This document shows positions 1 to 12,270 of a stretch of DNA of 64,000 nucleotides, piece after piece; positions within the stretch are counted from its first letter, which is position 1; each line of letters starts with the position of its first letter. Both the position numbers and the translations under genes were made by a program. The stretch is from Leptonemataceae bacterium (GTDB taxonomy: Bacteria; Spirochaetota; Leptospiria; Leptospirales; Leptonemataceae): the NCBI GenBank assembly GCA_965227295.1, contig OZ245742.1, forward strand, positions 4,608,001-4,672,000, written 5' to 3'. Under the pieces are notes generated by a model. The model made no database searches. It was not told the DNA's origin and saw nothing but the letters and a program-made list of their open reading frames with translations.

Positions 1-26
1 ACAGGCCTGCAGGAGCACCCCGGCCC

Positions 27-2847
<2,821 letters not shown>

Positions 2848-2873
<26 letters not shown>

Positions 2874-3477
2874 ACGATTCCCCGGACGGCAGCTCTTCCC
2901 ATCCCATGATCATCGCTTTGATGTTGGCGAGCGGCGTTGTGCCGGTCGTCGTTAAGTAGACGTGAGCGATGGTGAACGCCACCAGGGCGAACGCCCCGAG
3001 CGTGTGAAACCAGGCGACGGCCCCCAGGTCGAACGGCATCCAGCCGCTTGCGTGCAGTTTCTTGTAGTACATGTACAATAACCCGCTCGTAACCATTACG
3101 GGGATGACCAGGATCTTGAGGCCCAGGTACGCGAGCTTCTGCAACGGGTTCAGTTTATTCAGCACGGTCTTTTTCGTCGGATGCGGTTCGTCCCGGAAGA
3201 TTCCGGTCACATAGTAACGAACCTGCTCCCGCAGGAATTTCCGGGTGGGCACGTACTGCCGCCATTCGCCGGTGGTGACGTGCCAGAAGACGGCAAAGGC
3301 GATCAGGGCCATCAACAACCAGGCCGCCGTATTGTGGAAGGCGACGGCCTGGGCGAAGCCGAAGAACTCGAAGGTACCGTGAATCTCGAAACCGGTAAAG
3401 ATCAGCAGGAGAATCAACGTCGCCTGAGACCAGTGCCAGAAACGTTCGAAGCCCCGGTAAATGTACACCCGGCGCAC
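2848..3477 (-). CDS. Di-heme cytochrome b membrane subunit (PhsC / Ni-Fe hydrogenase cytochrome b family)
   Basis: 209 aa, 4 hydrophobic helices, four His (ERFWHW, FHNT, WFHT, IAHVY), KLNPLQKLAY motif; GTG start 1 nt after the upstream stop; 3' end overlaps sucA convergently. Confidence 0.88.
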
Positions 3478-3478
3478 G

Positions 3479-4675
3479 TTAGCAGCCCCCCTGGACTTTT
3501 TTGATCTTTCGTTTCACCGGACTGGAGAATCGTTTGAGCGCCTCTTCCAGATAGCGCAGACGTTGCGCCGCATTCCGCCGAAAGCGATAGTTGAGCATTT
3601 CATCCCGACCGGCCCCGGCCGGCGGGGCTTCGCTTTCGTAAAACATCTTTCGAAATTCCGCCGGCGATTCGGTGATGTAGTAGCTCTCGGTTTTGCCGAT
3701 CAGGTTCGCCAGGAGGGCGGCGCGCACGGCCTCGGACGGGTCGTCGGAATAGAAGACGTTTTTCAGGTTCACCCGGGTGTAGTAGTGACTCCAGGCGCGC
3801 TGCTGCATTTCGTCGAACGGAATGTGCACCGCCAGCGGTAGGTGAAACTCATCGTAAGCTTGTTTGTCGCGGACATCGATGAGATTAATGCGATAGTGGT
3901 CATGCATGAGGTCGTAGGCGAGCTTGTCGATGCTGATGTGCCGGTGTTCGTTTTGCTTTTGATAGGCGGGATCCTGGACGCGATTGCGGATACTCTCGGC
4001 CCGGGTCGGCTTGATGGCAACGAAGGCCACGATCAAGACGGCCGCACCGAGGACGGCGGCAAATCGGTTCCGAAAGGCCGGCGAGAAGCGCGCCGGCTCA
4101 CCGTTTACTTTTTTTTCGATGAGGCCCGTAAGCCAGAAGGCCAGCGCGGCGATCACCGTGATCACGAAAGCGAAGAGTTCCAGCGACCATCCCAAGAGTT
4201 CGTTGAAACGCAGTGCGCCCCAGTTCTCGCTCGTGTACAGGCTTTCCAGGAGCGGATAACCTTCCGTAAATCCGAGGATGCCGATCAACGCCCCGCCCAC
4301 GAAAACAAAAGCGTCCAGCCGCCCGATCGACAGCGCGCACAGGCTCGTGCCCGGACAATAGCCGCCGATGAGAAAGCCCACGCCCATGATCGCTCCGCCG
4401 ACCAGGGCGGACCAGAGAAACGTCGGGTTTACGTAGACGAGGCTGAGATCCAGCAGGCCGAAGTTATGAAGCAGCAGAATGCCGATCATGGCCGTAACGC
4501 CCGCGGTAAAAAAGACGCGCAGCACGGTGAAGTCGTAACCGTAAAACAAACCGACGAGTTTACGGCTCGACGAGAAGCCGGCCTGTTCCAGAAAAAAACC
4601 GAAGCCGATGCCCGAAAGCACGGCGATCAACAGGCTGAACTCTTCGCTGAAGACGTCCGGTACCAACGGTCCCAT
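3479..4675 (-). CDS. YeeE/YedE sulfur-transport membrane protein fused to a rhodanese-like domain
   Basis: GIGFGFFLEQAGF, GGYCPGT in the N-terminal TM part; IDVRD..YDEFHLPLAVHIP rhodanese signature; ends VQGGC. Confidence 0.88.
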   Translation of the reverse strand: MGPLVPDVFSEEFSLLIAVLSGIGFGFFLEQAGFSSSRKLVGLFYGYDFTVLRVFFTAGVTAMIGILLLHNFGLLDLSLVYVNPTFLWSALVGGAIMGVGFLIGGYCPGTSLCALSIGRLDAFVFVGGALIGILGFTEGYPLLESLYTSENWGALRFNELLGWSLELFAFVITVIAALAFWLTGLIEKKVNGEPARFSPAFRNRFAAVLGAAVLIVAFVAIKPTRAESIRNRVQDPAYQKQNEHRHISIDKLAYDLMHDHYRINLIDVRDKQAYDEFHLPLAVHIPFDEMQQRAWSHYYTRVNLKNVFYSDDPSEAVRAALLANLIGKTESYYITESPAEFRKMFYESEAPPAGAGRDEMLNYRFRRNAAQRLRYLEEALKRFSSPVKRKIKKVQGGC

Positions 4676-4676
4676 C

Positions 4677-5204
4677 TTACTGCTTCCCTCCGATCCACAA
4701 ACGCCGGCCGAAGTATGCCACCGCGTACGCCGATCCGAAGATCGCCATCATGGTGACGATGCCCCCGAACGACATGACCGCCATGCCGCTGAGAGCCGAA
4801 CCGCTCGTGCAGCCGCGCCCGAGCTGCGCCCCGAATCCGAAGAGCGCCCCGCCGATCAACGCGGCGATCATGCGGCTGCGATTGCTTACTCCCGGCCCCT
4901 TGTTCACCGAGAAGCCGATGCGGCCGCTGATCACGCCGGAGAGGAACGCGCCGATGAAAACGCCGAGCACCTCGAAGACCAACCAGGAGTGCAACGGTCC
5001 CTTCGGATGCGTTTCCTGATAGTCCTTATAAAAAGCGGTGTCGGCGTAATGCTCCGGCGCCGCCTGTTCCACCCCGCTGATCACGAAGCTCTTGAGGGCG
5101 CCGCTCGCGCCGAGCCCGCGCCCGGTTACGTAGAAAGTAAGCAATAAGACCAGGCCCAGATACAGACCGGCCAGGTACGGATTCATAAACGGTTTTGTTT
5201 TCAC
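4677..5204 (-). CDS. Half-size YeeE/YedE family protein
   Basis: NPYLAG, GRGLGASG, GGALFGFGAQLGRGCTSG motifs; GTG start overlaps the upstream TGA (GTGA). Confidence 0.9.
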   Translation of the reverse strand: MKTKPFMNPYLAGLYLGLVLLLTFYVTGRGLGASGALKSFVISGVEQAAPEHYADTAFYKDYQETHPKGPLHSWLVFEVLGVFIGAFLSGVISGRIGFSVNKGPGVSNRSRMIAALIGGALFGFGAQLGRGCTSGSALSGMAVMSFGGIVTMMAIFGSAYAVAYFGRRLWIGGKQ

Positions 5205-6817
5205 GGCTCTCCTCCTTTGCGATTCCCGAGCGGCGCCGTCGCGGCGGACGCCTTTCTTCGATACGCACCGCGCACACGCAGGCTCGCGTGCAACAGAACG
5301 GCAATGAGCGTCAACAGAACGAGGCCCTTGCCGACGATTTCCACGAACGGGATCGTATCCCGCCCGGGAAGATAAAATCCTTTCAGCTTCGCCAGGCGAC
5401 CGGCATCGCTCCGGCTATGGCAATCGTTGCAGGCGAGCGACTCCTTCGCCGGGCTGACCATATGATTCACGGGCCAGTACATTTCCGTTTCGACAAAATC
5501 GAATTTCCCGCTGTACGGCAGACCGACTCGCCGCATCCCCTCACGGGCCGCACTGTCCCAATCAAAATCTTTCCAGAACGCACCTTCGCCTTTATGCGCG
5601 GCCACCAACTTCGGCTGAATCAGCATACGATGTTCCGGATCCCAGATCTGATCGCCGCGATGAATTTTTACCGGAAAGATCTTCGACTCCGGATCGTCGT
5701 GGCTGCCGTTCAGCGTGTTGATTTGCACGGGAATGTCTCCGGGTTCCACGCGATCTCCCAGGAAGTAGTGGTCCGCGGTACCATTGAACCAGAGATAGTC
5801 CGGCTTCAGATTTTTGCCCCACTGGAAGCGCCCCTTTTTTGAGAGATAGGTGATGTTACCGTCCTCGTCTTTCTCCGTGAACGGTTCCCCGTCGCGCAAC
5901 TCGCCCGCTGCCGACCAACGCCAGTCCGTTTTCGTCGCGTTCACTTTCGCGTAGTACGGAATATGGCAGGTCTGGCATGCCACCTTTTCGTAGTGCCGGT
6001 TCAACAGTTCGTTCGTGTGCGGTACTTCGCCGTGACACTGCGCGCAGGTCGCGCGGTTGACGTTCTCCGAGGAAACCGAGTAGAGCTTCCCTTTCATGAC
6101 GTGATTCTCCGCGGTATGACACGTCACACAGGACATGTCCATGCCGTTGGCGGCCATGTGCACGTCCACATCCCGGGTGGTCGACAGCAGCGCCTCTTCC
6201 AGATCGCCGTGCTTTACGTTGTTGCCGCCGCCCGAGTAAAAATGACACGAGCCGCAGTTCATCTTTTGCGGAGCGCCTACGCTGCGCGCGACGTTGGTAA
6301 GATTCACCCGCCGATCGGGATAGCCGGCAACCTGCGAACCTTTTTGATACTCCGCGCTGTTGTCGTGGCAGACCATGCAGTCGACGTTGGCGCCGTTTCC
6401 GAAATCGAAGGCGGCGGCGTTCGCCATGCCGAAGCCGATGTGACACTTCGCGCAGGTTTGTTCGTTCGAAGACGCGCTGATGCAGAAGTTGTTGAACGAA
6501 TTCTTTTTTCCGCCGGCCACCAGACCGCGGCCCTCGATGTACTCCACGCGCTCCCAGTTCCAGTGCGAGGAGGCCATCACCTCCTTGTGGCGTTCCGTGT
6601 GACAACCGATGCAGGTCAGCGTAACTTCCTGCGGGCTCGCAAAGTTTCGATTGAGTTGCGGCAGACGCGCATGGTCTACGGACGGCACCGGAAAGATCGC
6701 GTACTCCTGCTTGAGCCGTTCGAGTTTCAGGTTCGGCTCTTTGCCGCGGAAGATCACACCGGCCAGCCCCAATAGCAAAGCCGTGCAGGTAAAAATGAAG
6801 GCAAGGCGTCGGTTCAT
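5201..6817 (-). CDS. otr: Octaheme c-type cytochrome, tetrathionate reductase (Otr) family
   Basis: Eight CxxCH motifs (CIGCH, CAKCH, CMVCH, CGSCH, CVTCH, CAQCH, CQTCH, CNDCH), GKKN..NNFC segment before heme 2, GGGNNVKHGDL, N-terminal signal/anchor and C-terminal TM helix; start moved to ATG 6817, which has a GGAGGGA RBS. Confidence 0.9.
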   Translation of the reverse strand: MNRRLAFIFTCTALLLGLAGVIFRGKEPNLKLERLKQEYAIFPVPSVDHARLPQLNRNFASPQEVTLTCIGCHTERHKEVMASSHWNWERVEYIEGRGLVAGGKKNSFNNFCISASSNEQTCAKCHIGFGMANAAAFDFGNGANVDCMVCHDNSAEYQKGSQVAGYPDRRVNLTNVARSVGAPQKMNCGSCHFYSGGGNNVKHGDLEEALLSTTRDVDVHMAANGMDMSCVTCHTAENHVMKGKLYSVSSENVNRATCAQCHGEVPHTNELLNRHYEKVACQTCHIPYYAKVNATKTDWRWSAAGELRDGEPFTEKDEDGNITYLSKKGRFQWGKNLKPDYLWFNGTADHYFLGDRVEPGDIPVQINTLNGSHDDPESKIFPVKIHRGDQIWDPEHRMLIQPKLVAAHKGEGAFWKDFDWDSAAREGMRRVGLPYSGKFDFVETEMYWPVNHMVSPAKESLACNDCHSRSDAGRLAKLKGFYLPGRDTIPFVEIVGKGLVLLTLIAVLLHASLRVRGAYRRKASAATAPLGNRKGGEP

Positions 6818-7063
6818 GTCCGTCTCAGATTCCCTCCGTGACAGTATGGAGTGTCGAGACTCTCCGTCGCACGCCAACATGAGACGGCCAGTAAAATCGC
6901 CGGCCGGCACTGCATTGTAGTAGGGATCGAGACGCGGTCTCGTCTCCGCGAATCCCGGCCCGGCGGCAAATTCTACGCCTCCGAGAGCCCCGAAAGCCCG
7001 GCGGATTTCCGGTATACAGATTTTCCCCGCGCCGACAAAACGACTCCGTCGTGTGACTTCGAC

Positions 7064-7091
7064 TTGTCGCACCGGCAATCATCGTTAACTT
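7064..7091 (+). promoter_or_regulatory. Possible sigma70 promoter for sucB-lpdA
   Basis: TTGTCG-16 nt-TAACTT about 30 nt upstream of the sucB ATG. Confidence 0.35.
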
Positions 7092-7119
7092 ACACGAAAG
7101 ACGTATTCAGGAACGGAGC

Positions 7120-8436
7120 ATGGCAGAAATCAAAGTCCCTCAGATGGGCGAATCCATCACCGAAGCAACCGTGGCCGACTGGCACTTCCAGCCAGGCGAT
7201 AGTTTCAACAGCGGCGACATCATTGTCGAACTGGAGACGGACAAGGTCACCATGGAAGTCCCCGCCCCGGAAGCGGGCACGCTCAAAGAAATCAAGAAAG
7301 ACTCCGGCGAGACCGTAAGCATCGACGAGGTCCTGGCGGTCTTCGAGGCCGGCGCGGGTTCCGGCGACAGCGGCGGTTCCGCGAAATCCGAAAGCAAATC
7401 CGAAGCAAAGTCCGAAGAGAAAAGCGAAGCGAGCAGCAGTTCCTCTTCGACGGCGAGTTCTTCCGGCGGCGGCAATCAAAGCGGCAGCGGCCCGCTGAAC
7501 GATACCGTTCCCCCCGGGGCGCGGCGCCTGGCCGAAGAAGAAGGCGTCGACCTTTCGAAGGTCACCGGCACCGGCAAGCGCGGCCAGATCACCAAAGAAG
7601 ACGTGGTCAATTACATTGAGCAACGCTCCAGTTCGAAATCATCCGGCGGGAGCGGTTCTTCGTCGGACTCGTCAAAATCGTCCGGCTCTTCAAAATCTTC
7701 CGACAGCGGACCGAGCCGGCCGCCGAAGCAACCCGGCGAACGTGAGACCGTGGTGCCCATGTCCCGCCTGCGCCAGCGCATCGCTGAACGTCTGGTGGAA
7801 GCGCAGCAGACCGCGGCCATCCTCACGACCTTCAACGAGGTGGACATGCACAATCTCATGTCCATGCGTTCGAAGTACAAAGAGTCATTCAAAGACAAAC
7901 ACGAGGTCGGGCTGGGCTTCATGTCGTTCTTCGTGAAGGCTTCCATTGAAGCGCTCAAGGCCTATCCGGCCGTCAACGCGGAGATCCGCGACGGCAGCAT
8001 GGTCTACAAGAACTTCTACGACATCGGCGTGGCCGTCGGCGGACCGAAGGGCCTGGTGGTCCCGGTCATCCGCGACGCGGACGAACTCAGTTTCGCCGGC
8101 ATAGAGCAGGAGATCGGCCGCCTGGCAGGCAAGGTCAAAGACGGCTCCATCGGCCTGGACGATCTCCAGGGCGGCACGTTCACCATCTCCAACGGCGGCA
8201 TCTACGGTTCCATGATGTCCACGCCCATCCTCAATCCGCCCCAGAGCGGAATTCTCGGCATGCACAACATCACGAAGCGGCCCATGGTCATCGGCGACGA
8301 AATCAAGATCCGCCCCATGATGTACGTGGCCCTCTCCTACGATCACCGCATCATCGACGGCAAAGAGGCCGTGAGTTTCCTGGTGCGCCTCAAAGAGTGC
8401 ATCGAGAACCCGGAACGCATGCTGCTGGACATCTAA
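7120..8436 (+). CDS. sucB: Dihydrolipoamide succinyltransferase (E2)
   Basis: Lipoyl domain ETDKV, E3-binding [13 protein letters not shown], catalytic YDHRIIDG. Confidence 0.97.
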
Positions 8437-8490
8437 GAACACGGCGACTCAGCGCGCCGGCGCGCGCTTAACTTTCAGGAACTTTACTTT

Positions 8491-9903
8491 ATGAGCGACA
8501 AACACGATCTCGTAGTCATCGGCGGCGGCCCTGGCGGGTACGTCTGCGCCATCCGCGCGGCCCAGCTCGGGCTGAACACGGCCATCGTGGAGAAACGCAG
8601 CACCCTGGGCGGCACCTGCGTCAACGTGGGCTGCATCCCCTCGAAGGCGTTGCTGGATTCCTCGCACAAGTATCACGACGCAAAAGAGGGTTTCGAGGCC
8701 CACGGCATCAGCGTGAAAGACGTCAAGATGGACGTGAAGAAGATGATGGAACGCAAGGTCCAGGTCGTCAAAGAACTGACCGACGGCCTCGACTTCCTCA
8801 TGAAAAAGAACAAGATCAAAGTGTATCGCGGCCACGGTTCTTTCGAAAGCGCGGAACCGGACAACATCAAGATCAAGGTCGAGGGCGAAGACTCGGGCAC
8901 CGTGAACACGCGACGCGCGGTCATCGCCACGGGCAGCGACGTCATCCGCCTGCCGAACATCGAGATCGACGAAGACAGCATCATCACCTCGGATCAGGCC
9001 ATCGCCCTGGAAAAAGTGCCCGAACACCTGGTCATCATCGGCGGTGGCGTAATCGGCCTGGAACTGGGCAGCGTATGGAACCGCCTCGGCGCGAAGGTTA
9101 CGGTCATTGAAATGTTGCCCGGAATCTTAATGGGCATGGACAAGAAGTTACGCGATCTCAGCACGCGCGTGCTGAAAAAGCAGGGTCTGGAATTCCTGTT
9201 CGAACACAAGGTGACGCGAGCCGAAAAGAAAGGCAAAAAGGTCAACATTACCGCCGAAGGTAAAGACGGCAAAGAACAGAAAATCGAAGCCGACAAACTC
9301 CTGGTCGCCGTCGGCCGCCGCCCGTACACCGACAAACTCAACGCCGAGAGCATCGGCGTGAAACTCACCGACCGCGGCCGGGTGGTCGTGGACCACGAAA
9401 GCCTGGAGACCGACTGCCCCGGCGTCTACGCCATCGGTGACGTGATCGACGGCGCCATGCTCGCGCACCGCGCCGAAGAAGAAGGCGTGAAGGTCGCCGA
9501 CATACTCGCCGGCAAGGCCGGACACGTGAACTACGATGCGATCCCCTGGGTGGTCTACACCTGGCCGGAGATCGCCTGGGTCGGCAAGTCCGAGGAAGAT
9601 CTGAAAAAAGACGGCGTCGAGGTTCGCACGGGTCAGTTCATGTTCAAACCCAACGGTCGCGCGAAGGCCATGAACGAGGGCGACGGCCTGGTCAAGTTCA
9701 TCGCGGACAAACGCACGGACAAGGTCCTGGGCGTATTCATCGTCGGCCCCAACGCTTCGGAGCTCATTGCCGAGGCGGCGGTGGCCGTGGAGTTCGGCGC
9801 ATCGGCGGAAGACATCGGCAAATCCTTTCACGCGCATCCGACGCTTTCAGAGGCGATGAAAGAGGCCGCCCTGGATGTCGGCAAAGAGTCCATCCACCAA
9901 TAA
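8491..9903 (+). CDS. lpdA: Dihydrolipoamide dehydrogenase (E3)
   Basis: GGGPGGY, GGTCVNVGCIPSK, GGGVIGLE, HAHPTLSE. Confidence 0.98.
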   Translation: MSDKHDLVVIGGGPGGYVCAIRAAQLGLNTAIVEKRSTLGGTCVNVGCIPSKALLDSSHKYHDAKEGFEAHGISVKDVKMDVKKMMERKVQVVKELTDGLDFLMKKNKIKVYRGHGSFESAEPDNIKIKVEGEDSGTVNTRRAVIATGSDVIRLPNIEIDEDSIITSDQAIALEKVPEHLVIIGGGVIGLELGSVWNRLGAKVTVIEMLPGILMGMDKKLRDLSTRVLKKQGLEFLFEHKVTRAEKKGKKVNITAEGKDGKEQKIEADKLLVAVGRRPYTDKLNAESIGVKLTDRGRVVVDHESLETDCPGVYAIGDVIDGAMLAHRAEEEGVKVADILAGKAGHVNYDAIPWVVYTWPEIAWVGKSEEDLKKDGVEVRTGQFMFKPNGRAKAMNEGDGLVKFIADKRTDKVLGVFIVGPNASELIAEAAVAVEFGASAEDIGKSFHAHPTLSEAMKEAALDVGKESIHQ

Positions 9904-9981
9904 CAAGCCCGGGCCGGAAGATCCTTCGTCTCGCGCCGACTCGCGGACCGTCACGACGACATAGGCCGGCACGGCTCATTT

Positions 9982-10710
9982 TTAACGCTCTATTCTCAAC
10001 ACCCCCGCCGCCGCCACGGCCACTACCGCCGCCGTCTCCACGCGTAAGATCGTCTGGCCGCAGGTTAAGATATCGACGCCCGTATGCTGCAACGCCGCGA
10101 CCTCATCCTCACTGAAACCTCCCTCCGGCCCCACGAAAAACGCCGCCGGCCGATCCGCCACCGACTTTTGTAGGAACTCCGACAATGGCCGTTCCCCCCG
10201 CGGGTCCAGGGCAAACCAGGCCTGGTCGCCCGGCCCGCCGGCCAGGGCGTCTGTAAGAGGTACTACATTTGCCACCGACGGCAGCCGGAACCGCCGGGAT
10301 TGCACGGCGGCTTCATAGACGATGCGCTCCGCCCGCTCCCGGGCAAAGCCGCGCTTCTGGCTATGCTCCGTCACAATGGGCCGGATTTCGCTAACGCCGA
10401 CTTCCACGGTTTTTTGCAACAACCAGTCCAGGCGTTTGCCCTCGGGCACGGCGGTGTAGAGGATGATGTCCGGTTCGTCGCGGACGCTCTCGGCGCCGTC
10501 GCCGCCTGGACTTGTAGGAGTTCCTACAATTACTGCAGGAGCATCGGGCGCGTCGGCCACTACGTAGCGCCGCCGCCGACGCCGTCCGTCTCCGACGAAA
10601 ACGACGTCCCCGGGCTGAAGCCGTCGGGCCCGGGCGTGCCGGTACTCGTCCGGTTCGAGGCGGAACTCCGGGGGAAACTCGTCGGGAATGTCCCGAAATA
10701 TCAGGAACAT
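9982..10710 (-). CDS. rsmE: 16S rRNA m3U1498 methyltransferase
   Basis: LQKTVEVGV, EAAVQSRR, VGPEGGFS, ILRVETA SPOUT motifs. Confidence 0.93.
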   Translation of the reverse strand: MFLIFRDIPDEFPPEFRLEPDEYRHARARRLQPGDVVFVGDGRRRRRRYVVADAPDAPAVIVGTPTSPGGDGAESVRDEPDIILYTAVPEGKRLDWLLQKTVEVGVSEIRPIVTEHSQKRGFARERAERIVYEAAVQSRRFRLPSVANVVPLTDALAGGPGDQAWFALDPRGERPLSEFLQKSVADRPAAFFVGPEGGFSEDEVAALQHTGVDILTCGQTILRVETAAVVAVAAAGVLRIER

Positions 10711-10757
10711 GTCTTTTTACTTTACACCGAACCGCGGCGCGGAATTCTTGCGGGCGC

Positions 10758-10841
10758 GCCGAAGTGGCGGAATTGGTAGACGCAGCGGATTCAAAATCCG
10801 CCGGGAGCAATCCCTTGTCGGTTCAAGTCCGACCTTCGGCA
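10758..10841 (+). tRNA. tRNA-Leu(CAA)
   Basis: Acceptor GCCGAAG/CTTCGGC, anticodon arm GCGGA-TTCAAAA-TCCGC, long variable arm GGGAGCAATCCC, GTTCAAGTC T-loop; CCA not encoded. Confidence 0.97.
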
Positions 10842-10846
10842 CAATC

Positions 10847-11047
10847 CTACAGCAGCTTCTTAATGCAGTTCTGATTCGGGCAGCGCGAGTAGTCGATCAG
10901 ACACTCCCGAAATTGAATGCCGGTCAGCGCGTCGTCGGGGCGCAGTTCCACCAGGCAGTCCAGGCCCTCTTCTTCCCCCACTCGATCAAAAGCGGAAAGT
11001 TCACCGGCGGTGCGCGCGTGTGTGATGAGTTGTTCTTCGGTAATCAT
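10847..11047 (-). CDS. Small hypothetical protein with 4 Cys (66 aa)
   Basis: GGAGGG RBS just before the ATG; fills the gap between the DGC gene and tRNA-Leu. Confidence 0.7.
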   Translation of the reverse strand: MITEEQLITHARTAGELSAFDRVGEEEGLDCLVELRPDDALTGIQFRECLIDYSRCPNQNCIKKLL

Positions 11048-11175
11048 ACGACCCTCCGTGGTCGCCGCGCCCTGAAACGACGCGGATCTGGCATTCGTGT
11101 GCAGTGGTGCGACTCCGGCACCGGATCTGTATAGGCGGACGCCTCCGGCGTCCTGGTGTTGTGTTGATTATCGGC

Positions 11176-12270
11176 TCAGTCCATGGTGGGACTGTAGAGC
11201 TGGATCTGGTTTCTACCGTTGCGTTTGCAGTGGTAGAGGGCCTTATCGGCGCGTTCGATCATGATTTTGCCGGTCTTTGCATCGGTCTTGCGATCGAAGA
11301 TGGTGACGCCGACGGAGAGCGTGACCTTCATCTCTTTGCCCTCGTGCATCACGGACATGCTTTCGATGGTGCGACGGATGTCCTCCGCCATCTTCATGGC
11401 AGTTTCTTCGTCGGCGCCGGGCATGATCATGCAGAATTCTTCGCCGCCGTAGCGCGCGGCCGTGTCCGACTTGCGGGCGGCGGCGTTGAGCACCCGGGCC
11501 ACGGCCTTGAGGACCTCATCCCCGGCCTGGTGACCGTGGGTGTCGTTGAAGACCTTGAACTTGTCGACGTCCGTGAGCATGAGCGCCAGGGGCGTTTTGC
11601 GTTTGATGGCTTTTTCCCGTTCTTCCCGAAAACGGCTCTGAAAGTAGGCGTGGTTCTTGAGCCCGGTCATCATGTCTACGGTGGCGCGTTCGTAGAGACG
11701 GGCATTCTCGACGGCAATGCCGGCCAGGGAGGCCAGGTCCACCAGGAAGGCGCGCTCGTCGTCCGGATACTCACCACCGACGACCTTCTCGCCGAGAACA
11801 ATGAGGCCGATGACCTTGCCTTTCACGCGCAGGGGCACCACCAGTTCGGAGCCGATCTCCCGCAGCAGACGAACCGAAGGGTCCTTCGGCACGTGCTCTT
11901 CCATTTCGCGCATGTTGAGGGACTTGCCCTGATTCTCGAAGTACTGCACGAGCGGCGAGGTCAGCGGCACCCGGTACTCATCCAGCCCCTTGATGAGCTC
12001 GAAGCCCTTGTAGCCGTGGACCAGGGCGATGACGTCCGAATCCATTTCCGGCGTCAAAAAGAGTGCGGCACTCAGGGTCTGCACCTGAGCCAGACACATG
12101 TCGAGGACGGCCTGGATGAGGTACTCGTAATCAAGCGTGGAGTTGAGCGCGCGAGAGATCTCCAGCAATTGCCGGAGATCGAAGATCTTTTTTTCGTAGT
12201 GCTGGATTTCCTCTGGGAGAGAGAGCGACATAGGCACGCCTGCAATGAAGGCCGGTTCAGAAGCATCCAT
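11176..12270 (-). CDS. GAF-GGDEF diguanylate cyclase
   Basis: GAF domain, DMMTGLKN, DVDKFKVFNDTHGHQAGD, RKSD inhibitory site followed by RYGGEEF; alternative start ATG 12231. Confidence 0.95.
   Translation of the reverse strand: MDASEPAFIAGVPMSLSLPEEIQHYEKKIFDLRQLLEISRALNSTLDYEYLIQAVLDMCLAQVQTLSAALFLTPEMDSDVIALVHGYKGFELIKGLDEYRVPLTSPLVQYFENQGKSLNMREMEEHVPKDPSVRLLREIGSELVVPLRVKGKVIGLIVLGEKVVGGEYPDDERAFLVDLASLAGIAVENARLYERATVDMMTGLKNHAYFQSRFREEREKAIKRKTPLALMLTDVDKFKVFNDTHGHQAGDEVLKAVARVLNAAARKSDTAARYGGEEFCMIMPGADEETAMKMAEDIRRTIESMSVMHEGKEMKVTLSVGVTIFDRKTDAKTGKIMIERADKALYHCKRNGRNQIQLYSPTMD

Follow-up and report, generated by a model that had tools for sequence, protein, structure and literature searches.

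The window analysed here is a stretch of 64,000 nucleotides from the genome of a Leptonemataceae bacterium (assembly GCA_965227295.1, contig OZ245742.1, positions 4,608,001 to 4,672,000), and the object of this study is the product of an open reading frame (ORF) on its minus strand, 3479..4675: a protein of 398 amino acids that we call YeeEb-Rhd. This protein is one half of a two-piece YeeE/YedE channel that carries two added helices, a rhodanese fold devoid of its cysteine, and a tail ending in the motif GGC, a motif whose conservation goes far beyond chance. The explanation that best accounts for the whole arrangement, and that we rate a little above an even bet, is that Cys398 tips an arm similar to that of SoxY, working between a periplasmic reductase fed by quinol and the outer mouth of the channel. 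Cysteine swinging arms, those of SoxY, DsrC and the TusA-type carriers, are central to the movement of reactive sulfur in cells; what is new here is a candidate for such a carrier on a new scaffold and with new partners.

From its N-terminus to its C-terminus, the protein is composed of the following parts:

4196..4675, minus strand: YeeE/YedE half "b" (PmpB-like), residues 1-160, matching PF04143, with four hydrophobic segments and two re-entrant loops.
4010..4183, minus strand: two extra transmembrane helices, residues 165-186 and 204-222, with a basic loop, 187-203, between them (from hydropathy; helices 165-190 and 199-221 in the model; predicted path from outside to inside, then from inside to outside).
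3656..3943, minus strand: rhodanese-fold domain without catalytic cysteine, residues ~245-340 (PF00581, Foldseek).
3731..3751, minus strand: pseudo-active-site loop Y309-S310-D-D-P-S-E, within the rhodanese fold.
3539..3655, minus strand: helical stretch that follows the rhodanese fold, residues 341-379 (model helices 338-346 and 357-379; block pLDDT 89-94; F341 and R366 nearly invariant).
3482..3538, minus strand: basic flexible tail, residues 380-398, ending in PVKRKIKKVQ and then Gly396-Gly397-Cys398 (direct read; pLDDT falls to ~60).
3482..3490, minus strand: the GGC codons, with Cys398 at 3482-3484 and the two glycines at 3485-3490, next to the TAA stop at 3479..3481 (direct read).

The first-pass annotation of this stretch, confined to 3479-3945 (the last 155 codons, or residues 244-398, and the stop), had singled out a C-terminus reading KRKIKKVQGGC before a TAA codon, exactly as direct reading gives it, and had suggested aligning homologs to see whether the GGC is kept despite a variable linker. 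It is kept. The family is large, with 2718 proteins at E <= 0.001 among 8000 candidates scored, and GGC, alone or followed by one residue, ends 119 of the 120 best database homologs, the exception, P0059, diverging before its end. G396, G397 and C398 are invariant in all 78 aligned full-length relatives, at identities down to 33%. We also collected 80 related loci (L001-L080) from Bacteroidota, Ignavibacteriota and other groups: three of them are cut by the end of a contig, and each of the 77 with a complete 3' end encodes a protein ending in GGC, GGCS or GGCG.

The same ending is found on proteins that have no channel part at all. The C-terminal 173 residues, searched against 1.8 billion cluster representatives, give 171 matches at E <= 0.001, among which are 41 clusters of stand-alone proteins of about 190-235 amino acids, with one N-terminal hydrophobic segment, a rhodanese fold lacking the cysteine, a lysine-rich linker that cannot be aligned and, invariably, a final G-C. 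In 39 such relatives with a single helix, the only invariant residues are D66, R68, G136, G204 and C205. The forms linked to Psr-type operons, described below, often end in EGC instead of GGC, so that the fixed element is the Gly-Cys at the very end. A sorting signal, of the GlyGly-CTERM type or similar, was considered for this ending and rejected, as no hydrophobic segment follows the motif.

The rhodanese fold, in turn, has kept its shape and lost its active site. Pfam places Rhodanese (PF00581) on residues 256-334 with E 2.9e-06 and 28.1 bits, against a cut-off of 22.2, which makes the domain a member of the fold. The first-pass annotation had read VFYSDD where an active rhodanese has its catalytic cysteine; residues 306-312 are indeed NVFYSDD. 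Only one sequence of the Protein Data Bank (PDB), hp1203 of H. pylori, gives an alignment that spans this loop, and that alignment is weak (whole-sequence E 0.31, 14 bits): it sets v-f-y-S-d-d-p-s-e over l-l-h-C-r-a-g-r-r, in a register that agrees with Pfam and with the fold matches. On this weak mapping (E 0.31), the catalytic cysteine corresponds to Ser310, and the basic anion-binding loop to an acidic one. None of 28 aligned homologs has a cysteine at the catalytic position, which is occupied by 23 alanines, 4 serines and 1 glycine, and the consensus of the stand-alone relatives at the active-site loop is VFYSNG. With neither the catalytic cysteine nor the basic loop, the protein does not qualify as an active rhodanese or sulfurtransferase: the annotation "rhodanese" can conceal a domain without catalytic activity, the chemistry having shifted to the C-terminal end.

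In most homologs, another cysteine is found on the stretch that leads from the last helix into the rhodanese fold, within the motif Q-x-K-C-x-F-K-E (columns corresponding to residues ~238-246). YeeEb-Rhd, which reads …KQNEHRHI… in this region, and its two closest relatives lack it; it is thus not essential to the family.

The N-terminal part of the protein is a channel half. Pfam finds Sulf_transp (PF04143) on residues 42-225 (E 9.6e-13, profile positions 12-197 of 310); Sulf_transp, Rhodanese and DUF6691 are the only matches in its scan of the protein, and hydropathy gives six hydrophobic segments ahead of the rhodanese part. The profile positions, together with the description of split channels in PMC11582611, identify half b as the N-terminal half of YeeE. 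On the same grounds, Cys107, which lies in the motif GG(Y/F)CPG and is invariant in 78 of 78 sequences, appears to be the equivalent of Cys91 of StYeeE. An AlphaFold2 model built on 78 relatives (mean pLDDT 82, pTM 0.70) consists of a helical membrane region, an alpha/beta rhodanese unit, a long helix 357-379 and a tail of low confidence. Foldseek matches this model to the single-domain rhodaneses 3o3w and TSTD1 (6bev), with a target TM-score of ~0.66; the YeeE structure 6LEO is absent among the matches listed for the whole model, and a phmmer search of half b (residues 1-225) against PDB sequences gives no match.

We now turn to the genes that surround YeeEb-Rhd. Its ORF is part of a cassette of four genes, all on the minus strand, in which neighbours abut or overlap by 0-4 bases:

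5201..6817, minus strand: Otr-family octaheme c-type cytochrome, 538 amino acids from the start supported by homology (TIGR04315, E 2.2e-168).
4677..5204, minus strand: YeeEa, the YeeE/YedE half "a" (PmpA-like, corresponding to the C-terminal half of full-length YeeE), 175 amino acids (PF04143, E 1.5e-21, profile positions 177-308 of 310).
3479..4675, minus strand: YeeEb-Rhd.
2848..3477, minus strand: cytochrome b subunit of the PhsC/cytochrome b561 type, 209 amino acids (PF01292, E 1.2e-25).

YeeEa and YeeEb-Rhd form a split YeeE/YedE of the PmpAB type: PF04143 matches both halves, each half has a conserved loop cysteine, and the two genes abut. The start of YeeEa overlaps the stop of Otr. 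Its single cysteine, Cys132, lies in the motif R-G-C-T-S-G and is invariant in 76 of 76 sequences; in a weak match (E 0.027) it aligns with Cys293 of the S. thermophila YeeE, 6LEO, the residue that holds thiosulfate in a periplasmic indentation of the channel (PMC7449682).

The cytochromes at the two ends of the cassette had gone unnoticed in the first-pass annotation. Otr scores 560.8 bits for TIGR04315, whose cut-off is 375, and matches PDB entry 1SP3 with E 8.7e-121. The protein begins with a signal anchor and carries eight CxxCH motifs; basic residues come after the membrane helix at its C-terminal end. The eight motifs are invariant in 52 of 52 sequences, and so are K104 and, 8 residues away, C112, the equivalents of Lys56 and Cys64 of 1SP3; Lys56 of the Shewanella OTR is a ligand of the catalytic heme II (PMC3769277). 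The other cytochrome, of type b, matches NF011582, the cytochrome b subunit of thiosulfate reductase, with E 3.2e-32 and a score below the cut-off, and is presumed to be the quinol-oxidising partner of Otr.

The coordinates given for Otr follow its homologs, which start at Met88 of a longer ORF, 5201..7078. That longest ORF opens with a TTG and runs through 87 codons (6818-7078) before it reaches the start used by the homologs, and the extension has no counterpart in relatives: to judge by these comparisons, it is probably untranslated. In two Ignavibacteriales loci, a second, shorter Otr paralog of 453 amino acids, with ~44-45% identity to the Otr of the window, lies ~4 kb downstream of the cassette (L037:11198-12559 and L058:11198-12559).

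The association of these genes extends well beyond this genome. Among the 80 related loci, 77 have Otr, 74 have YeeE half a and 78 have the cytochrome b, and the order Otr > CytB > YeeEa > YeeEb-Rhd recurs in 72 of them between unrelated flanks. Lutibacter, Roseimarinus and Saccharicrinis are among the named isolates in which the cassette is found. The order in the window differs: the cytochrome b gene, second in those 72 loci, comes last.

The module formed by the split channel and the Rhd-...GC protein also exists in unfused form, and then mostly with a different enzyme. In two Bacteroidota genomes, the genes for a PsrA/PhsA-like molybdoenzyme, PsrB and PsrC (NrfD) precede those for YeeEa and for a YeeEb without fusion, and the series closes with one or two Rhd-...GC genes that stand alone. 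Such Psr-type operons, with a split YeeE and signal-anchored rhodaneses that lack the cysteine and end in GGC or EGC, are found at L103:3520-9711, at L104:8508-14078 (minus strand), and among L134-L153. Fused or unfused, the module is detected at E <= 1e-20 in 36 of 201 sampled Bacteroidota genomes. We examined 22 Bacteroidota loci around unfused Rhd-...GC genes: in 17, a PhsA/PsrA-like molybdoenzyme stands beside the split YeeE, ten of these having the clean order PsrA-B-C-YeeEa-YeeEb-Rhd, and in one (L148), the genes are Otr-CytB-YeeEa-YeeEb-Rhd(GGC), the unfused form of the cassette of the window. The split-YeeE/Rhd-GC module thus moves between reductases. In the window, the likeliest partners of the arm are Otr and the cytochrome b.

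Regulators of ~146-148 amino acids lie directly upstream of some Otr-linked and Psr-linked operons: a MarR-family protein at L016:2747-3187, and MerR-family proteins at L030:2636-3082, L141:3562-4002 and L143:2350-2793. No regulator of the MerR/MarR type is present beside the cassette of the window.

The cassette is an insertion at its present location. It occupies 4.2 kb (2848-7078) within the 2-oxoglutarate dehydrogenase operon, where it parts sucA from sucB, with flanks at 27-2873 and 7120-8436, and the 3' end of the cytochrome b gene overlaps the 3' end of sucA by 26 bases. In three relatives, two of the same genus and one of the same family, a gap of 50-195 bases, free of other genes, separates the end of sucA from the neighbouring sucB, from which we conclude that the cassette was inserted here. 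YeeEb-Rhd was not found in the 2 genomes of the same genus that were searched, and has a homolog in only 3 of 18 genomes of the same family, one of the three being full length, with 41% identity. The insertion was probably brought by horizontal transfer; base composition gives no sign of a foreign origin, with a GC content of 0.55-0.65 across positions 1-12000.

Otr and Rhd-GGC are each encoded once in this genome. The first-pass annotation had remarked that no TusA-like YeeD carrier is present in the cassette, and the remark extends further: the TusA/YeeD family (PF01206) has no match in YeeEb-Rhd, in the cassette, or in the whole genome. SoxY (PF13501) has none in the protein or anywhere in the genome, and the Pfam scan of the cassette finds no SoxZ-like gene. 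Nor is YeeEb-Rhd a DsrC: that family is absent from its Pfam scan, and its tail has a single cysteine, against two in the C-terminal arm of DsrC. That the genome encodes neither SoxY nor TusA/YeeD, which might otherwise do the job, we count in favour of the arm.

Taken together, these observations suggest the following mechanism. The two added helices would hold the rhodanese fold on the periplasmic face of the membrane, as a docking or scaffold module rather than as a sulfurtransferase, and from it would hang the basic tail of ~19 residues tipped by GGC. Cys398 would be a covalent carrier, loaded with a persulfide, a polysulfide or an S-thiosulfonate, as on SoxY, and the basic, glycine-hinged tail would let it swing between two sites. 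At one end of the swing would be the active site of a reductase, Otr with its cytochrome b here and PsrABC in the unfused relatives; at the other end, the outer mouth of the channel, where Cys132 of YeeEa would be the counterpart of the thiosulfate-binding Cys293. Electrons would pass from quinol to the cytochrome b, or PsrC, and from there to the periplasmic enzyme. The arm would present substrate to the reductase, collect its product for import, or both. The four invariant cysteines, C112 of Otr, C398 of the arm, C132 of YeeEa and C107 of YeeEb-Rhd, could plausibly link the heme site to the channel as a relay of thiols. What the data show is the domain architecture, the lost catalytic cysteine, the invariant terminal GGC, the conserved cassette of four genes and the alternative pairing with Psr; on which side of the membrane the arm lies, that Cys398 is loaded covalently and with which sulfur species, and which way sulfur flows are the inferred parts of the mechanism.

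The same cysteines can be read in another way. The terminal thiol might be a periplasmic redox or gating element rather than a carrier of cargo: it would form a disulfide with Cys132 of YeeEa or with C112 of Otr, and would thereby block or open the channel, or serve the reductase as a resolving cysteine. Invariant cysteines on all three proteins are what such a role would leave behind; the solved YeeE has a C22-C91 disulfide in its crystals (PMC7449682), and the multiheme polysulfide reductase MccSep needs a heme-ligating cysteine and a selenocysteine at its active site (PMC13510729). A fixed plug, however, would hardly need the long basic linker, variable in length and with Gly-Gly before the cysteine, that is typical of an arm that reaches and delivers, and the pairing of the module with two unrelated families of reductases argues against a specific catalytic residue acting in trans. 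We consider this alternative unlikely.

The topology prediction that the first-pass annotation had recommended puts the arm on the outside. The solved YeeE of S. thermophila has its N-terminus outside and its C-terminus inside, helix 7 reversing the second half (PMC7449682); the half formed by H1-H6 therefore begins and ends outside. The channel part of YeeEb-Rhd corresponds to the first half of the PF04143 profile, and is thus the N-out half by homology. The positive-inside rule, applied as the mean number of lysines and arginines (K+R) per loop over the 78 sequences, gives 0.01 for the N-terminus, 1.99 for loop A, 0.08 for loop 73-84, 1.00 for loop B, 1.31 for loop 138-164 (net charge -2.4) and 4.28 for loop 187-203 (net charge +2.5). 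This is the pattern of a protein with its N-terminus outside, its fifth helix running inward and its sixth outward, which leaves the rhodanese-GGC part in the periplasm. Among the stand-alone relatives, 35 of 39 carry more positive charge ahead of their single helix than behind it, as signal anchors do, and one has a lipobox-like signal. From the homology to YeeE, the loop charges and these anchored relatives, we regard a periplasmic arm as quite likely.

This location bears directly on the role that the first-pass annotation had proposed for the tail, namely a tethered carrier that replaces YeeD. YeeD works at the cytoplasmic face of YeeE. An arm standing in for it would be cytoplasmic, taking thiosulfate or persulfide at the inner mouth of the channel and handing it to cytoplasmic acceptors. 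The idea gains from the lack of any TusA/YeeD family gene in the genome and cassette, from the dependence of YeeE on YeeD in the systems studied (PMC13047784, PMC11582611), and from some three lysines or arginines right after the last helix. It has against it the N-out half-channel, the alternation of loop charges with loop 187-203 inside, the signal anchors and lipobox-like signal of the stand-alone relatives, and the nature of the conserved neighbours, which are periplasmic reductases: the signal-anchored Otr in one case, a PhsA-like enzyme in the other. Half of the proposal is thus retained, a tethered carrier cysteine being the best reading; the replacement of YeeD is not, because the arm is predicted to be periplasmic, and we hold it to be improbable.

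The cargo itself could be different. If the arm carried selenium, as selenide or selenotrisulfide, the cassette would be a module for handling selenite or selenium, with an unchanged architecture. In NCBIfam, the protein weakly matches YedE, a selenium transporter, and TsoB, a selenoprotein of the rhodanese type, and a review table lists selenoprotein forms of YeeE/YedE and of the TIGR04315 cytochromes (PMC13188914). Those matches, however, are far below their cut-offs (23.3 bits against 200, and 16.3 against 800 or more), the alternative partner of the module is a PhsA-like thiosulfate/polysulfide reductase, and a selenocysteine codon replaces that of the terminal cysteine in none of the 77 complete loci, so that we give little credit to a selenium cargo. 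The table is of interest for another reason: the selenocysteine forms that it lists for YeeE/YedE (GUxSG) and for the TIGR04315 octaheme family hint at a nucleophilic role in catalysis for the conserved cysteines of both families (PMC13188914).

Least credible of all is a GGC end with a role in metal binding, for instance as the distal ligand of a heme iron or in a copper or zinc site, or one that anchors the tail through a lipid or other modification: a single terminal thiol beside glycines could ligate a metal, and hemes ligated by cysteine occur in the sulfur cytochromes TsdA and MccSep (PMC13510729), but the tail offers no second ligand, the linker no conserved histidine or cysteine, the flanks, which vary between loci, no conserved modification enzyme, and the protein is already anchored in the membrane.

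Several points nevertheless weigh against a SoxY-like arm serving Otr, or at least temper it. The topology of YeeEb-Rhd is a prediction, and the 15 residues that follow helix 6 carry ~3 K+R (net charge +0.4), an ambiguous signal. The loading of Cys398 with sulfur is a proposal, and the reach of the tail to C112 of Otr and C132 of YeeEa is an assumption; Cys64 of the Shewanella OTR, the counterpart of C112, reportedly lies at the active site in the 2004 structure. Gene linkage is not proof of physical contact. YeeEa is not called by the ORF filter in 5 of the 80 loci, and 4 of the 22 unfused loci have no recognisable reductase, neither Otr nor Psr, beside the module. A complex prediction of Otr 30-490 with YeeEb-Rhd 226-398, computed without hemes or controls, scores 0.02 and 0.00, for a mark of 0.32, and speaks neither for nor against their contact. 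Finally, the chemistry of Otr is unsettled. In vitro, the enzyme prefers nitrite and hydroxylamine, and a deletion of otr in Shewanella sp. ANA-3 has no tetrathionate phenotype, the authors suggesting sulfite reduction (PMC12949373). The substrate of Otr cannot, therefore, be used to name the adduct on Cys398.

What Otr, crystallised in 2004, does in nature is still under dispute (PMC12949373). Transcripts of otr rise 36-fold with tetrathionate in sediment microcosms (PMC8528874), and the pentaheme cytochrome MccSep reduces polysulfide with a cysteine and a selenocysteine at its active site (PMC13510729). The otr and soxZ genes of lucinid symbionts have a divergent soxY between them (PMC11237559), a second, unrelated pairing of Otr with a carrier that has a cysteine arm and an independent precedent for the mechanism proposed above. 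One may then ask whether Otr cytochromes act in cells on sulfur held covalently on a protein arm, and not on free tetrathionate, an arm for which the GGC tail would serve in this cassette, and a divergent SoxY in certain Gammaproteobacteria; the split-YeeE/GGC unit would be a portable adaptor, presenting substrate to, and importing product from, unrelated quinol-fed periplasmic reductases, Otr or PsrABC. This generalisation is tentative, and we would sooner doubt it than rely on it. If true, it would describe a counterpart of the Sox carrier system that is tethered to the membrane and works reductively, and the linkage makes the question of Otr function approachable by experiment. In the full texts that we searched, mostly outside subscription journals and supplements, we found no report of a link between Otr and YeeE/YedE, or of a rhodanese with a GGC tail.

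Comparison with known systems shows what is borrowed and what is distinctive in this architecture. The closest relatives of the channel are PmpA and PmpB (YedE1 and YedE2), encoded by adjacent genes, each with about four helices and one conserved cysteine, and corresponding to the C- and N-terminal halves of YeeE (PMC11582611). PmpB has ~130 amino acids and no extension, whereas the half studied here adds two helices, a rhodanese fold and the GGC tail. The YeeE-YeeD system (TsuA-TsuB) likewise joins a YeeE-family channel, with its loop cysteines, to a small protein that takes sulfur on a cysteine (PMC11582611, PMC13047784), and PDB entry 8j4c is a YeeE-YeeD fusion. Here, in contrast, the channel is split into two genes, the protein that carries the cysteine has a rhodanese fold and not a TusA fold, its predicted place is the outer face, and the genes belong to a respiratory cassette, not to an assimilation operon. 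As for the neighbouring gene, the Otr of the window shares with the OTR of Shewanella oneidensis (1SP3) its eight heme motifs and the equivalents of Lys56 and Cys64; the Shewanella protein is described as soluble (PMC12949373), whereas this one ends in a membrane helix, has a cytochrome b of its own, and is constantly associated with the channel-arm module.

In role, the protein may resemble, by analogy, Sud of Wolinella succinogenes, which is reportedly a periplasmic polysulfide-sulfur transferase with a rhodanese fold and a canonical active-site cysteine, and the presumed donor of sulfane sulfur to a polysulfide reductase linked to quinol. Psr-type operons are where most of the unfused relatives lie; unlike Sud as described, YeeEb-Rhd has no active-site cysteine, bears its thiol at the end of a tail, is tethered to the membrane and is paired with a channel.

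In design, the arm resembles that of SoxY. The first-pass annotation had likened the tail both to the C-terminal cysteine arm of DsrC and to a C-terminal motif of SoxY, the latter in the long form (V/I)KVTIGGCGG. Of that motif, the core stands: SoxY ends in GGCGG, with a sulfur-binding cysteine (PMC6067878). The GGC of YeeEb-Rhd, and the endings of its relatives (GGC, GGCS, or GGCG plus 0-1 residue), resemble this ending without being identical to it. YeeEb-Rhd has neither the immunoglobulin-like fold of SoxY nor a match to its Pfam family, and no SoxZ; its scaffold is a dead rhodanese fused to a channel half, its cysteine is the last or next-to-last residue of the chain, and its partners are reductases, Otr or Psr, instead of the oxidative Sox enzymes. 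What the two would have in common is a periplasmic location, a single reactive cysteine at the tip of a flexible, glycine-flanked C-terminal peptide preceded by K-(V/I)-x, and service to c-type cytochrome enzymes.

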